In this document: in pieces, positions 9,001 to 15,000 of the stretch
How positions within the stretch are numbered: position 1 is the stretch's first letter
Layout: the number at the start of each line of letters is the position of its first letter
Assembly: GCF_017348835.2 (NCBI RefSeq)
Contig: NZ_CP072317.1
From: Escherichia coli
GTDB lineage: Bacteria; Pseudomonadota; Gammaproteobacteria; Enterobacterales; Enterobacteriaceae
Direction: 5' to 3' (one strand)
Length of the DNA stretch: 64,000 nucleotides
Program-made: the position numbers

Positions 9001-12000
9001 GACCAGCCCAGCGTTCTCCCATGCTGCCCAGCACATAGTAATTATCCTTGTCGGTGTAATAGTTTCCGGCACTGCCTGCCGATTTAACAACGCTGAAACT
9101 CAACATCAGAAATCATCTCCCGGCTCAACATCCTCCCCGCGCTCCCGGTGCACATTAATGTTCACCTCTTCACGACGCTGCATATGCTGCTGGATGTCCG
9201 GATGATTTTCCTGTTGCCATGCCTCATAAGCGGCCATATCCACCACTTCACCGGATTCACTGATCCCGGGTGGCAGTTGCTGTTCCATCTCTTCTTCCGG
9301 TTTCATTTTCAGCTCCTGCTCGATCCCCCCTGCCGGAACACTCACACCTGCATCTGACTTCTTATCATTGATGACAGAAGACACTGGCTGTTGTGGCTGT
9401 TGTGGCTGTTGTGGCTGTTGTGGCTGTTGTGGCTGTTGTGGCTGTTGTGGCTGTTGTGGCTGTTGTGGCTGTTGTGGCTGTTGTGGCTGTTGTGGCTGTT
9501 GTGGCTGTTCAGCCTGAGTCACATCTTCTCCGGAGGCAACCTCCGGTTCAAAGAGGCTGGCCATCTGACGACCTTCTGCTTCCCTTGCGGCAAGTACGGC
9601 ACTCAGACGGTTCTCCATTTCCGGGTTGATGTCACGCGGAATAAACTCCGGAGCGACCTTCGGTCGTGCCTGATATTTCAGAGAGAGTTTGACTGCCGGA
9701 TACGGTCCGGGCAGAGTGACATAGCAGGTCAGATCCGGCAGAGACTGAATGTCGGAATAACTGACCAGCGTCTGACGCTCCATATCCTTACCGGTCGATA
9801 CCCCGTCACGTACCGGGTCAGCACCGTAGGAATACTGCTCGCTGGCTTTCAGGTGCTCTTTCTCACCAATCTCACCGGCAGCGAACTCTGCAATCTTATG
9901 GCTCGGGGAACGGAAAAAAGCACGGGTGTTCATGACGTCAAACAGCGTGGCCGCCGCTTTCTCACCGTAGATATCTTCCAGCTGGGCATAGGACTGGATA
10001 CCAAACACATAACAGCCACCGAACTTACGGGCTTCCGGCAGGATCTCCACCAGATCCGGCAGTTTGTGTAACGTGGGTAACTCATCACAGAAAAACCACA
10101 CACGACGGTTACGGTTTTCTCCCATTGCCAGCAGACCACGAATGGCAATGGACAGCCACATGGAGATCACAGGCTTCAGGGAGGCATGGGTGTCGGCGTT
10201 CGACGAAATAAACAGCCAGCCGTTTTTCTGATCTTCCCGGACACCACGCATCCAGTCACGGATGGTGAAGGGATCACCGTTATGCTCAATCCCCTGCAGG
10301 TAACGGATGGCTTTCACGTAGTTGGTCAGCACAGCACGGATGGAAATCGCCGTTTTCTCAATTTTCTCTTCCACCAGGTTGGCCGCCGGTGAATTACGCA
10401 GGAAGGTACGCAGTTTTTCAATTTTGATGGAAAGCAGTGTGTCCACCAGTTTGCTGTAGCTGCGGTTGGGGTCATTACGCATCAGGTACGCCGCTTCCGC
10501 AAAAATGGTACGTCCTGAACCCTGCCAGAACGGGTCCTCTTTTGTACCCATAGGGATCAGCGTGTTCGCGGTATTATCAAAATCCGGCTGTGTCAGGCAC
10601 TCCTTCCACAAATCCCATGCGGCACAGCGGGCATCCAGCGGATTCAGGATTTTATCGATGGAGGGATCATAGTAACTTTTAACAAATTCCCCTGAACGGT
10701 CATAAATCACCACCATATCACCGCGCTGACGGGCATAGTTGGCCAGACGACGGATAACCTCCGACTTACCGGCCCCGACCGTGCCGTGCAGACAGAAGTT
10801 CTGGATTTCGGAATCCCGGATAATCGGCAGGTCGCCAATCCGGATATCGGAGTCCTTGCCGTCTTTTTTCAGCATCCGGGCAACGTCTTTCGGATTGTCT
10901 GTCAGCTGACGACCACCTGTGACTTCATTTTCGCTCTGTTGTTTACCCTGACGCCCCAGAATCCAGGAGACAACAAAGAAGGTGATCAGGCAAATAACCA
11001 GGGCCACGACAGACGCCAGAACGAATGCAGACCATAGCTGCTCTCCGCACCAGATCATATATTTATCATGCAGTACCTGGGCAGCGTTCATCCGGAAGGT
11101 TTTGCCGTAATACTGGATCTCATAGACCGGCTGGGATTTTATTAAATCCCGCATGCCTTCCAGTGACGTACACCACCAGTAAATACAGCCGTTGATAAAC
11201 GTCTGCCAGCTTATTTTTACCCATAAGACCAGACCAATGAGGATCCAGAAAAAAATAAACAGGCAGTAAAGCATGATATTGGCGATCTGGCTGAACATGC
11301 GGATACGCATGGACGCAATCTGACCGCCCTGGGTCATATCCTTTGCGTTAAAACTCATGATGAAACTCCGGGAAAATCTGGAACAGGGCAGAAAAGGATG
11401 ATGTGGGGTTAATTCACAGAAACAGACCAGGTGTACCCTGTATGCCGGTGGTGATGCCCGCCTGCAGTCCTGCCGGAAGAGACCTTCTCTGTAACAATGT
11501 CAGTCAGGCGCAATACTTCAGACCAGTCACTCCCATGCGGAAACTGGATCTGAATAAAAAGGCGTACCCGTTCACGGTGATCCAGAACTGTGTCCGGTTC
11601 ATAAAAACGGCCACTGTCAGGAGAAACACAGGACGTTTTATTGATGAGATCATACTTATCGGCAGGAGACTGCGATGAAATCGCCCAGGTGATATTCTCC
11701 GCCTGGTGGCCATCAATACGACTGCTCCCCGGCGTCCATGCAATTTCCTGCGCACTCGCCACGATGATCTCCCTGGAAACTTCAGCCAGCTTTCTGGGTG
11801 TACAGAATACCGGTGCCAGCACACACAGGGACAACAAATTACAGCTGACCGCCTCCGGTTTAAGCAAATTGCTCCCGGATTTTTCAGGAAAAGATATTTT
11901 TGTCAGTATTTCAGTTAATTCCTTATGCCTGAGAGAATTAATAAAGTACATGATAAGCATCATGAGAAACAATATAACAATAAGCCCTCCGATAACCACT

Positions 12001-15000
12001 AAAAGGTCAGTATCAATATTATTGCTGTACAGATAGTCTTTAGTGGTCACTGTATTATCCTGTATCACCGGGGGGTATTCAGTTACAGGCTTCTCAGTAA
12101 ATTGATTATTCTCACCAACATATTCAGCGATATTGTCTGATGTCATAATGACTTTCTCCGGAAGATCCCGGCTTCGCCGGCAACACTTCACGGTCGCACA
12201 AAGAATTTGCACAACCGCTCAGTGTTTTCATATTTATTTCGGAAACGCCGGGAGGTGACAAAATTTATTTTGTTACATCCCGGGGTTGGACAACGAGCAA
12301 CGCGAGGCGTCAGCAAGGAGGCCGGTCAGATCAGCCTCCTGACGAGGTTCAGAGAATATTTGCGATTGATTTGGCCAGTTGGTCTTCGAGAACAGGCTTC
12401 GCCTCTTCAAATTTCAGGTTAACCTTGTTCGCATTTGAAACCACACGGGTCTGGTATTTATGCTGGTTACCTGTTTCAGTACTGGTCTGAATTTTCGCAC
12501 CTGATGTGCCCTGACGCAGGGCGGCAACATTATCCGTTGTCACCGTTGCCTTAGTACGCTCTGCAATCTGTACATCCGTGATCATGGTATAGTTCACATC
12601 TTCCACCATCGCATCTGCAGCCATACCCACCAGACCAGCAGCAAGGCCTACACCGAGTGTGGCACCGGCAGAATTTGAGTTATAGCCGGTAATACCGGCA
12701 CCTAACGCTGCACCAACTGCTGCGCCTTCATAACCACGGTTCAGCCATCCCTGAGACTCCCGCAGATCCATCTTATCGGCCTTCAGCACATTCGCCTGAA
12801 TCCAGTAGTAGGCTTTATCCGGAGAAGTCACCACCTGATATCCTTTTGCTTTCACAGCATCAGCAATTTTGCCCTGCAGCCCACTCATGTCTTTATCAGA
12901 CGTGTTTTTGATCTGCAGAAATACCGTGCGTTCGCTGGCGGGTTCAAGCCAGATGGTCTCACTCATCTGAGTCTTCACCTCAAGGTTACGCTTCTTGATT
13001 GCTGTGCTCATCGCACCACACCCTGAAAGGGCCAGAGTGGAACTGACCAGTGCAACCATCATCAATTTTTTCATTTTCATCAATGTTCCTTCATATTGAA
13101 TAAAACGTCATAATATACAAATTAAGATTCACTCATCATATCGTTTTGAACTATAACCATATGAATTACCACCGATATCCACACCAATACCTGACATAGG
13201 TAACCCTGTTGCAGGATTAGTACGATGAAAATCCATATTATCAAAATCCAGATGCAAATCTTCATTAGTTTGTTCATTTACCTGAGATTGCATCCATTCT
13301 CTTACGCTTACACAACCACTAACTCGCCTTAATTCGTATAGTGTACCAATGATAAAAACCATCAGGCTTAATAATGGAGAGAGTAAGGAAGATACTGGCA
13401 TCGTTATATACCAAACGCCTTTACTAAACTTAAACTCATCCGACACATTCCGTTTTTTTCGTATTTGAGAGAACAACCATATAAACAGTCCCTGCCATAG
13501 TACTATGAAGAACAGCATAAAAATTGTTTCGGCATTCCCCCAACTAGCCAGATAACAGGCGATAAACTGTATCACCGTTACCAGAGTAATATGGGTTAAA
13601 CATCTCATTATCATCTCCCAAAAACAGCATTATTGCTTATACTTATCCTGATATTCCTTTGCCCTTTTCATCAGTTCCTGTGGACTGTCAGCCCCGGGCA
13701 TTCTTTCCTGAGCCGACTTTTCTTCATTATATTTATTATTCTGAGATAATGCCTCTGTTTTATGGTGATTCTGCAGTTCAGAATACTGTCCTCTTACAAT
13801 ATTTTCCTCGCCACGTACGCTGTTCTGAGTATCACCTATATTCCCTTTATATTCTGTGACCATATTATCAACCTGATGTTTTACATCATTACGGATATTA
13901 CTGTCCTGCGTTCTTTGATCAATAATGGCCTGATGCCCCTGATGGTCAGCAATAATATCCTGACTGCCACCACCCGAAGGTACGCTCTCCATTCCTTTAC
14001 CAATATCACCACGGGATTCCCGCCAGGCATTATCAACACCAGGCTGTACCTGTTCCTGCACAAAAGACCAGGCCATCGCCCGACGACGTTCTGCAATCTC
14101 CGGTGAACTGGTGTTTGTCAGAATAGCTTCTGCATCCTGTGGCGCGTGTTTCATTACATACTGTGCAAACTGTTGCGACAGGTCTTCACTCATCTGCCCA
14201 CTCATGCTTTCAGTACGGGATGCCATTTCAGCATATTCATGGCTGCGGGTCATATTCGTCGTGTACTGGTCGTAACTCTGCTTCGCTGAATTCAGGGCTG
14301 CAGACAACTGATCCACACGGGAATCAGCATTATTGTCCGTATGGCTGCCGGACTCACTGACCTTGCGACTGGTAAAATAATCGCTGGCCTCTTTAAAGTC
14401 TTGTGTAGCTCTGGCATCGATATCATGACGAGCATTATGGCTCGACTGAGTATTACTACTTGCCGTATGCGCATCATTATCTTCCCAATCAATACCAGCC
14501 CGACCACCACCTCTAACGCCTAATCCTCCACCAACACCAAGAATTTTAGGTTTAACCCCCCATTCAGCATGAGCATCTCCATACATCCCGGCAGAAGCTC
14601 TCGTACTTCTGGATGCCAGTTCCTGAGTCGCCTGCTCATTACTGATATTATGCGCCTTCGCATAGCTTTCCACTGCACTGCGCATACGGCTGGCCATCAT
14701 GGAGTCCTGTGCGCTCATCGTGCTGTCAGCACCACCTGTGACAGAATCACTGCTCCCCCGGTTAGAACCAAACTGGCTGAGCGAGTTCCAGGCACTGGCA
14801 ATACTGCTGCTGAACCCATGCAGGGCGCTTTCTGCTCTGTTCGACGCCTCCCGGGCCATTTCCTGTTGTGCCGCTGCAATCTGACGCGTTGCATTGATAC
14901 CGACCGGTAACCGGGACATCGCCCCGCTCGCATCCATCACCATATTACCGTCACGGGTCTGTGTGGCAGTTGCGCCACTGCCGGTCTGGTACATCATCTG

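Follow-up and report, generated by a model that had tools for sequence, protein, structure and literature searches.

A conserved accessory gene just upstream of traD in R100-type transfer operons, yhfA, probably encodes a bitopic inner-membrane protein

Within the window, a 64,000-nucleotide stretch of the Escherichia coli contig NZ_CP072317.1, the open reading frame (ORF) between traT and traD is very probably the yhfA gene of plasmid R100: a real gene under selection that F-like transfer operons carry as a dispensable accessory, one of a family whose products are bitopic inner-membrane proteins and whose genes always lie just upstream of traD. Across 1,101 bp, the DNA is 100% identical to R100 (NC_002134.1), where the coding sequence is WP_000199905.1, “hypothetical protein.” The ORF is therefore not a new gene, and in sequence and position it is the same as R100 yhfA. 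An earlier sequence-only reading had called it unassigned; in the sense of unnoticed this was mistaken, as the gene was already entered under the name yhfA (AP000342 / NC_002134). Thousands of records list its product as a hypothetical protein, UniProt entries label the R100 protein “YhfA” or “putative conjugative transfer protein,” and we take the gene to be unrelated to the chromosomal E. coli yhfA. In the literature searched, YhfA is named as preceding traD in R100 without a counterpart in F (PMC2762410), and work on ST131 plasmids mentions yhfA in passing with a co-selection link to traC; no functional study was found beyond these.

Antibiotic resistance has major carriers in R100-type F-like plasmids and in the related IncFII plasmids of Klebsiella, whose tra operon is the best-studied conjugation system. 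Directly upstream of its coupling-protein gene lies a conserved, selected membrane protein without an assigned function. The ORF itself is already known; what may be new is that ORFs from R100, Klebsiella, and diverged E. coli plasmids belong to a single family in which position and architecture are fixed, and that this family contains a traS-like hypervariable N-terminal island.

The yhfA coding sequence occupies 11409 to 12146 on the minus strand (ATG at 12146 to 12144, TAA at 11411 to 11409) and encodes 245 amino acids plus a stop codon, exactly as first delimited. A Shine-Dalgarno sequence of its own, GGAG at 12159 to 12156 (minus strand), can be read directly 9 nt 5′ of the ATG. An upstream GTG start at 12212, which would lengthen the product to 267 amino acids, was rejected: that stretch is conserved noncoding hairpin sequence, which plasmids without yhfA have as well, and all homologs begin at the ATG instead. 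The yhfA frame, alone of the six, is open end to end in 8/8 homologs examined. For the C-terminal domain, dN/dS values of 0.15 to 0.25 indicate purifying selection, and values for the N-terminal part are 0.3 to 0.4. Because these ratios are low and only this frame is conserved as open, yhfA is a selected coding gene and not a chance ORF; the lack of conservation that the sequence-only reading had allowed for was not seen.

The opposite view, that yhfA is decaying or nonfunctional, or that the real product is a 106-amino-acid ORF in the same-strand +2 frame (11504 to 11824), is highly improbable and already largely refuted. Although many database entries are 213-amino-acid chimeras that shift into the +2 frame, the frameshifted clusters are mostly single-member clusters from read-assembly sources, and intact forms of 243 to 246 amino acids predominate (clusters of 2,474, 1,341, and 447 members). 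The +2 frame stays open over 132 to 136 codons among close relatives, and over 202 in L009, but it is broken in diverged homologs (84 codons in L010 and 68 in L004), and an overlapping +2-frame gene was rejected on this basis. IS-disrupted and truncated copies of yhfA do occur; however, dN/dS is well under 1, and the C-terminal domain is kept down to 23 to 35% identity with its invariant motifs.

On the same strand, traT lies upstream at 12349 to 13083 and traD, with its own GGAG, downstream at 9106 to 11358. The interval from the end of traT at 12349 to the start of traD at 11358 measures 990 bp, in agreement with the earlier estimate of about 1 kb, and yhfA lies between these genes on the tra strand, as it does in homologous loci. 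The traT-yhfA intergenic leader (12147 to 12348, minus strand) is very conserved and highly structured (structure z = −5.3, 4 compensatory pairs), with a core hairpin pair at 12160 to 12229, and had no match in Rfam. No sigma-70-like promoter or canonical terminator was found between traT and yhfA, and traD begins only 50 nt past the yhfA stop codon, making the proposed co-expression with transfer functions plausible. We infer on these grounds that yhfA is co-transcribed with its neighbors, although the hairpins 5′ of yhfA might terminate much of the transcription, which counts against a read-through model.

The sequence-only reading gave the order of these genes in F correctly as traT followed directly by traD. 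In F (NC_002483), traT (88820 to 89551) and traD (from 89804) are separated by a 252-bp gap with no annotated gene. Comparison with R100 defines an R100-type-specific segment of about 800 bp (11363 to 12163, minus strand), in place of which F has some 65 bp of unrelated spacer. This argues against a simple deletion of yhfA in F, as the different spacer found there resembles the pre-traD spacer of pSLT and Klebsiella plasmids.

Searches with tblastn placed yhfA in 1,932 plasmid records, 1,795 of them near full length. Among complete E. coli genomes, 1,209 of 5,426 (22%) carry the gene, and 1,398 of its 1,402 places are on plasmids. When plasmid records were selected by matches to the flanks, yhfA was present in 1,767 of 4,076, or roughly half of F-like resistance plasmids. 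Both F and pSLT lack it, which makes yhfA accessory to transfer; with this absence and its presence in only 1,767 of the flank-matching records, it is neither a core F-like tra/trb gene nor the universally conserved, already characterized one that the sequence-only reading had considered as an alternative. Insertion sequences also interrupt yhfA in plasmids still typed as conjugative, and these disrupted copies, together with F and pSLT, indicate that the gene is dispensable.

Comparison of the traT-traD interval across F-like plasmids thus gave yhfA in the R100 type, nothing in F or pSLT, and homologs in two further lineages. In a diverged E. coli F-like lineage, where TraD is only 46% identical, the same slot holds a yhfA homolog with 35% identity. 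In Klebsiella IncFII plasmids, the slot holds a remote homolog (hhalign probability 96.3, E 1.6e-9), and this type is present in 2,339 records, mostly from Klebsiella. In every homologous locus inspected, the gene is upstream of traD, either adjoining it or with only small cargo genes between (in some loci, an 87-amino-acid ORF, DUF2726, or vapBC), and two Klebsiella IncFII loci with the homolog have no traT. That homologs lie in the same slot beside traD in three diverged F-like lineages is more in keeping with an old accessory gene of the tra operon, since lost in F, than with recent insertion. The earlier description of the ORF as cargo inside the tra operon holds insofar as the gene is accessory and absent from F and pSLT, but it undersells a slot that is conserved in R100-like plasmids, in the E. 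coli lineage with the 46% identical TraD, and in Klebsiella IncFII plasmids. Only fragments or variants belonging to this plasmid family came back from an exhaustive phmmer search of 1.84 billion representatives and from a profile search against 5.8 billion proteins. A pattern scan of genome contigs yielded two matches, on a “Lachnospiraceae” metagenome-assembled (MAG) contig and a 411-bp Acinetobacter contig; both are R100-type and probably represent contamination.

The predicted protein has the characteristics of a bitopic membrane protein: one transmembrane (TM) helix, no signal peptide or lipobox, an acidic N-terminal tail, and a basic C-terminal flank. The tail (codons 1 to 47; 12006 to 12146, minus strand) has a net charge of −7, is modeled as disordered, and is probably periplasmic. 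It is followed by the TM helix (codons 48 to 70; 11937 to 12005, minus strand), in which residues 48 to 66 form one strongly hydrophobic 19-mer (Kyte-Doolittle [KD] score, 3.2) inside an AF2-predicted helix spanning residues 46 to 85. A basic juxtamembrane segment then leads to a conserved alpha/beta domain (codons 101 to 245; 11412 to 11846, minus strand). The net charge of the tail ranges from −4 to −7 in 8/8 homologs, and the charge pattern and single TM helix are the same in all of these variants. Together with the AF2 helix, this bears out the earlier proposal of a single TM helix and a soluble domain at the C terminus. Residues 99 to 117 are also hydrophobic, though less strongly (KD 1.7); a second TM helix or a lipobox here was rejected, since the model makes this stretch the first beta-strand in the C-terminal domain and distant homologs do not conserve it as hydrophobic cysteines.

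The C-terminal domain is modeled in the order b-a-b-b-(a)-b-a-b-b (pLDDT 84.6, pTM 0.84); for the full-length protein, AF2 gave just 1 confident model out of 5. Overall, the predicted architecture and fold were reproducible. Residues invariant across the YhfA superfamily include P139, G140, R143, D145, W154, Q201, G229, G230, G237, Y238, and T239, and a conserved polar cluster comprises PG-x-x-R-x-D, Q201, GG-H, and GYT-W. The positive-inside rule, the only guide to orientation used here, would give an N-out/C-in topology with a periplasmic tail and a cytoplasmic domain of about 145 amino acids. The surface role once suggested is thus unlikely for the conserved domain, because the charge distribution in every variant would place it in the cytoplasm.

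As the sequence-only reading anticipated, no function could be identified by similarity. YhfA had no match among Pfam, NCBIfam, or PHROGs profiles, none among PADLOC families (0 at E ≤ 1), and none in the PDB by sequence, profile, or fold, and its structural relatives, among them A0A3A3Z845, A0A8A4K8L9, A0AAW8HD37, and A0AAP9QIY0, are uncharacterized proteins only. One explanation would make YhfA cargo unrelated to conjugation, such as a single-gene, membrane-anchored protein for phage defense, abortive infection, or immunity for which the traT-traD junction serves as an integration hotspot and which hitchhikes on tra transcription. The interval does behave as a cargo hotspot, with related loci containing a DUF2726 gene, vapBC, an extra 203-amino-acid ORF, and an 87-amino-acid ORF, and backbones that are otherwise near-identical differ in having or lacking yhfA. 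F-like plasmids also expose their hosts to pilus-specific phages. However, mobile cargo does not typically keep one slot across lineages whose TraD proteins are 46% identical, and the family turned up at a single position, in F-like tra operons only, and not in defense islands, phages, or chromosomes. Beyond the lack of PADLOC or PHROGs matches for YhfA, the diverged homolog produced only a marginal CARF_TM match (E 0.0095) over the TM region. We consider such a cargo role distinctly improbable. The related idea of an anti-defense function also fared poorly; no known defense family matches, and yhfA is located in the distal tra operon and not in the leading region, where anti-defense genes of conjugative plasmids usually cluster.

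Of special interest is the 5′ part of the gene, where codons 1 to 100 (tail, TM helix, and linker; 11847 to 12146, minus strand) form a hypervariable island of low GC content, about 40%. Other plasmids have unalignable sequence of the same architecture at this site. Identity drops to 38 to 61% over these codons, while both flanks stay 94 to 99% identical. At least five mutually unalignable N-terminal versions retain the same length, charge, and TM layout, and traS displays the same hypervariability pattern in the same alignments. This pattern underlies the main rival explanation, in which YhfA would be an exclusion or self-recognition determinant whose variable periplasmic tail and TM helix would sense incoming or related F-like transfer machinery in an allele-specific way, much as TraS recognizes donor TraG, with the cytoplasmic domain as the output module. 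The position of yhfA after traS and traT fits such a role, and the dN/dS of 0.3 to 0.4 within one N-terminal type shows that the tail is under some constraint. Against it, YhfA lacks similarity to TraS (hhalign probability 1.3% for R100 TraS and 0.07% for F TraS), which rules out homology, and in the few loci compared the N-terminal type does not covary with traS type; for example, L011 has a different traS with an R100-type N-terminal part. In addition, the conserved part of YhfA is predicted to be cytoplasmic, and F excludes efficiently without yhfA. An exclusion role is rather unlikely.

The best explanation as a whole, which we hold tentatively, is that YhfA, a dispensable accessory factor in the inner membrane, works together with TraD or the type IV secretion system (T4SS) on the cytoplasmic side. 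Transcription from the tra and traT promoters would read through into yhfA, on the same mRNA that must also carry traD and traI. The product would insert into the inner membrane with its cytoplasmic domain on the side on which the TraD coupling protein and the base of the T4SS work, and could tune substrate docking, transfer, or establishment without being required for them. This mode of action is doubtful in its particulars. The link to TraD, drawn only from gene adjacency and predicted topology, is offered with low confidence, and a purely cytoplasmic role leaves the hypervariable N-terminal island unexplained, which counts against the model. YhfA and TraD also diverge inconsistently (in L010, traD has about 90% DNA identity and the yhfA C-terminal domain 54 to 77%), and strict co-divergence was rejected on this comparison. 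A broader proposal, that YhfA-like proteins are an ancient and so far unrecognized F-like conjugation component common to R100-type plasmids, Klebsiella IncFII plasmids, and the diverged E. coli lineage, in which the cytoplasmic domain, whose fold has no characterized relative, partners TraD or the T4SS base and the variable periplasmic tail confers plasmid-specific recognition, is also unlikely; if true, it would add a new specificity or exclusion layer to the plasmids carrying most clinical antimicrobial resistance of Enterobacteriaceae.

Comparison with related and known systems helps to set this family apart. Among its closest counterparts are the 229-amino-acid Klebsiella IncFII protein WP_014343485.1, encoded beside a TraD 82% identical to that of R100, and a 230-amino-acid protein of E. 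coli plasmid CP099183.1. Both occupy the slot just upstream of traD and share with YhfA the layout of tail, TM helix, linker, and ~145-amino-acid domain, as well as the motifs PG-x-x-R-x-D, LQ(F/Y), GGH, and GYT(W/F). They differ in having only 23 to 35% identity over the C-terminal domain and unrelated N-terminal parts, and some of their loci lack traT or have gained DUF2726 and vapBC. In fold, the ferredoxin-like dimeric alpha/beta-barrels (ABM, NIPSNAP, and Dabb) may resemble YhfA as alpha/beta sandwiches of b-a-b-b units, with weak Foldseek matches (E 0.004 to 0.04, TM ≤ 0.22). TraS, the product of a neighboring gene, is likewise an inner-membrane protein with low GC content and allelic hypervariability between conserved DNA, but YhfA has one TM helix instead of several, carries a conserved soluble domain, and is not homologous. 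In the F tra operon, artA and the trb genes reportedly (Frost and colleagues are said to have described them in 1994) encode small inner-membrane proteins that are variably present and dispensable in laboratory transfer. YhfA resembles these accessory proteins in its predicted location, its place within the tra operon, and its variable presence; by description, it differs in being larger and in having a conserved cytoplasmic domain that is predicted to be well folded.

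On the minus strand between traT and traD, a 245-codon open reading frame runs from an ATG at 12146 to a TAA stop at 11409 to 11411 (ORF listing and translation), with a Shine-Dalgarno GGAG 9 nt upstream of the ATG on the same strand. The frame, yhfA, lies in a 990-bp interval between traT (12349 to 13083) and traD (9106 to 11358), in the order traG, traS, traT, yhfA, traD, and traI, all on the minus strand, confirming the sequence-only reading of an ORF of about 245 amino acids with its own ribosome binding site at this position. A longer ORF from a GTG at 12212 was rejected because the upstream stretch is a noncoding element also present in plasmids without yhfA; in addition, the ATG is the start in every homolog. 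The interval is 100% identical to that of Shigella flexneri plasmid R100 (NC_002134.1), in which the ORF is listed by RefSeq as a hypothetical protein between traT and traD (WP_000199905.1) and was named YhfA in older annotation. UniProt and AFDB entries carry the names "YhfA" or "putative conjugative transfer protein," and a truncated "conserved hypothetical protein YhfA" is reported directly upstream of traD in pEntH10407, while F is without any ORF similar to YhfA (PMC2762410). The gene is not a newly discovered element: it is already annotated in R100 and catalogued, though by name alone. A full-text literature search found no functional work on YhfA, and the one other mention found was a PAN-GWES scan of ST131 plasmids that linked traC variation to yhfA. 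What is added here is evidence of selection, the joining of R100-type, Klebsiella IncFII, and diverged E. coli genes into one family, a bitopic architecture that is consistent across homologs and includes a hypervariable N-terminal island, and a conserved, uncharacterized predicted fold.

yhfA is a real gene. Among seven R100-type alleles, pairwise Nei-Gojobori dN/dS was 0.15 to 0.25 for codons 101 to 245 and 0.3 to 0.4 for the alignable stretches of codons 1 to 100. The annotated frame was the only one open in all eight homologs, and intact forms of 243 to 246 amino acids dominate the database clusters (2,474, 1,341, and 447 members). That yhfA is a nonfunctional ORF is essentially excluded. 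A 106-aa ORF overlaps it in the same direction (11504 to 11824, minus strand, +2 frame of yhfA). This same-strand +2 frame is open for 132 to 136 codons in close relatives and for 202 in L009, one of the comparison loci, which explains why protein databases contain so many 213-aa chimeras produced by frameshifts; such 213- or 181-aa "proteins" shift from the yhfA frame into the +2 frame at different points, and are mostly single-member clusters from read assemblies. Because the +2 frame is broken in diverged homologs, this ORF is probably not a gene.

Intervals containing yhfA (R100 type) are widespread. Megablast with the interval and its flanks matched 4,076 plasmid records, 1,767 of them over the full interval, and tblastn with the protein matched 1,932 records (1,795 near full length; 1,912 typed conjugative). 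Among 5,426 complete E. coli genomes, 1,209 carry yhfA, with 1,398 of 1,402 places on plasmids. The other common haplotype is that of F, where traT is indeed directly followed by traD, as the sequence-only reading had stated, across a 252-bp gap with no gene; the pSLT gap is approximately 375 bp. In alignments, all types have in common roughly 185 bp following the traT stop; they part exactly at the yhfA Shine-Dalgarno and rejoin some 5 to 25 bp before the traD ATG. Where R100-type plasmids have roughly 800 bp, F has an unrelated spacer of about 65 bp that bears a loose resemblance to the spacer preceding traD in pSLT and Klebsiella plasmids. R100-type copies, with 96 to 97% identity across the two loci, were also seen in a metagenome-assembled genome labeled Lachnospiraceae (CAAGKF010000127.1) and in a 411-bp contig of an Acinetobacter idrijaensis assembly (JQCU01000648.1); both are most likely binning or contamination artifacts.

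Searching 1.84 and 5.8 billion proteins by sequence returned nothing beyond this plasmid family, and comparing the same slot across other F-like plasmids gave more. E. coli plasmid CP099183.1, whose TraD and TraT are 46% and 85% identical to those of R100, encodes right after traT a 230-aa protein whose alignment with YhfA covers the C-terminal 141 residues at 35% identity (E = 2e-25). Klebsiella IncFII plasmids, with a TraD 82% identical to that of R100, encode between traT and traD a 229-aa hypothetical protein (WP_014343485.1) that matched the YhfA profile with an hhalign probability of 96.3% (E = 1.6e-9; 23% identity over 146 columns); 2,339 plasmid records contain this gene type, and two Klebsiella plasmids keep it despite having no traT or just a remnant of it. 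Invariant in the joint alignment are L105, V109, P139, G140, R143, D145, W154, G179, P184, Q201, L214, G229, G230, G237, Y238, and T239.

The sequence-only reading had taken yhfA for cargo inside the tra operon, which holds only in part. The junction does gather genuine cargo, including DUF2726, vapBC, an extra 203-aa ORF, and an 87-aa ORF. A yhfA-like gene, however, lies immediately upstream of traD or close by even in deeply diverged sequences, and this fixed place in the sequences compared points to a long-standing accessory gene of the tra operon rather than to recently acquired cargo. Unrelated cargo such as a defense gene is quite improbable, since the family was not found outside the traD-proximal slot and PADLOC and PHROGs gave null results. 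Cargo at junctions flanking traD was seen at L004 3571 to 3939, L005 3572 to 4582, L017 3098 to 4243, and F (L013) 5967 to 6592. In CP099183.1 the yhfA-like gene is followed by a DUF2726 gene, to which sister plasmids add vapBC; in one E. coli/E. marmotae lineage, the yhfA-like gene and traD are separated by DUF2726, sometimes accompanied by antisense vapBC, and F has vapBC antisense between traD and traI. An Escherichia sp. plasmid (L007 655 to 1266 and 1501 to 2225) has the extra 203-aa hypothetical gene after traT and then a frameshifted yhfA.

Coexpression with transfer functions, as had been proposed, is made plausible by the gene's surroundings. On the tra strand, a consensus scan of the traT-yhfA spacer found no sigma-70-like promoter and no canonical intrinsic terminator, and the only promoter-like matches, inside the yhfA ORF, were no more numerous than in shuffled sequence. 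As traD starts 50 nt after the yhfA stop, upstream transcripts reaching traD and traI in R100-type plasmids would have to cross yhfA. In pEC867_1 (L008 1501 to 2280), the yhfA stop is lost, and the ORF, extended by 14 codons, overlaps the traD start by 4 nt. The spacer itself (12147 to 12348, minus strand, about 200 nt) matched no Rfam family and is unusually structured, with a sense-strand RNA minimum free energy z of −5.3 and a core (12160 to 12229) made of a bipartite 18-bp hairpin and a 5-bp GC hairpin. This core exceeds the flanking genes in conservation and hardly varies among F, R100, and pSLT, with or without yhfA downstream; Klebsiella IncFII plasmids keep the hairpin with compensatory changes (both sides altered in 4 of 23 pairs) and several G-U-compatible single changes. 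The element may be a 3′ stabilizer or partial terminator/attenuator of the abundant traT mRNA, or a yhfA/traD leader. Two Klebsiella F-like loci without traT (L015 and L016) still have, upstream of traD, both the hairpin element and a yhfA-like gene; in L015 the last traT codons alone persist at about 2280 to 2310 (...IANIL-stop), and L016 has the additional 87-aa ORF. Within traD, a perfect 9-bp tandem array of 13.9 copies (9385 to 9509, minus strand) encodes a (QQP)n tract in the C-terminal region of TraD; this tract is probably a spacer of polymorphic length that precedes the TraM-binding tail.

One transmembrane helix and a soluble C-terminal domain had been predicted, and hydropathy in eight homologs and an AlphaFold2 model agree. 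All eight have an N-terminal tail of 45 to 52 residues with a net charge of −4 to −7, a single strongly hydrophobic segment (Kyte-Doolittle 2.5 to 3.2), and a juxtamembrane stretch of net charge 0 to +3 with basic first residues, e.g., RHK, RRNK, or RK, so that the positive-inside rule predicts an N-out/C-in topology. The full-length model (14-sequence alignment; one of five models confident) has residues 1 to 44 disordered, a long helix at 46 to 85, and a compact domain at 101 to 245 with pLDDT around 90. Modeling of the domain by itself (12 sequences) gave the same element order, b-a-b-b-(a)-b-a-b-b, with pLDDT 84.6 and pTM 0.84, three of five models reaching at least 77.5. Foldseek against AFDB50 matched about a dozen uncharacterized proteins (E = 1e-6 to 1e-4) from Pantoea, Enterobacter, Citrobacter, Kosakonia, Phytobacter, and Pseudomonas; ABM/NIPSNAP/Dabb ferredoxin-like barrels gave marginal matches only, and no convincing solved relative was found. 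The modeled domain thus appears to be a recurrent but uncharacterized fold.

The sequence-only reading had identified no function, and no link to a known activity emerged here, so our preferred mechanistic proposal rests on anatomy and is put forward tentatively, at well below even confidence: YhfA could be an accessory factor of the inner membrane that transfer can do without. Its conserved C-terminal domain, on the cytoplasmic side, would act where the membrane meets the TraD coupling protein or the T4SS base, and would adjust transfer without being needed for it. The fixed place near traD, predicted orientation, likely obligatory cotranscription, and dispensability in F fit such a role. YhfA poses a clearly delimited question that lends itself readily to experiment, in an operon of central clinical importance, but would be no surprise to a conjugation specialist.

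The main rival, that YhfA is an exclusion or self-recognition determinant, is unlikely, though less so than unrelated cargo, and best accounts for the traS-like hypervariability of the predicted periplasmic tail. Functions beyond those considered here share the rest of the probability. Sliding identity across traG-traS-traT-yhfA-traD revealed two islands of extreme divergence, traS (13129 to 13614) and the first ~300 nt of yhfA (11847 to 12146), both of low GC content (37 to 41%), with the remaining DNA 90 to 99% identical. The N-terminal part comes in at least five versions that cannot be aligned with one another (R100 type, L009, L010, L004 type, and Klebsiella types), all with the same architecture. 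The N-terminal type does not simply track the traS type, as L011 combines a different traS with an R100-type N-terminal part. R100 traS is itself labeled only "hypothetical protein" in RefSeq. Homology between YhfA and TraS was rejected on comparison; the 5′ part of yhfA resembles traS in being a low-GC, hypervariable island amid conserved tra DNA.
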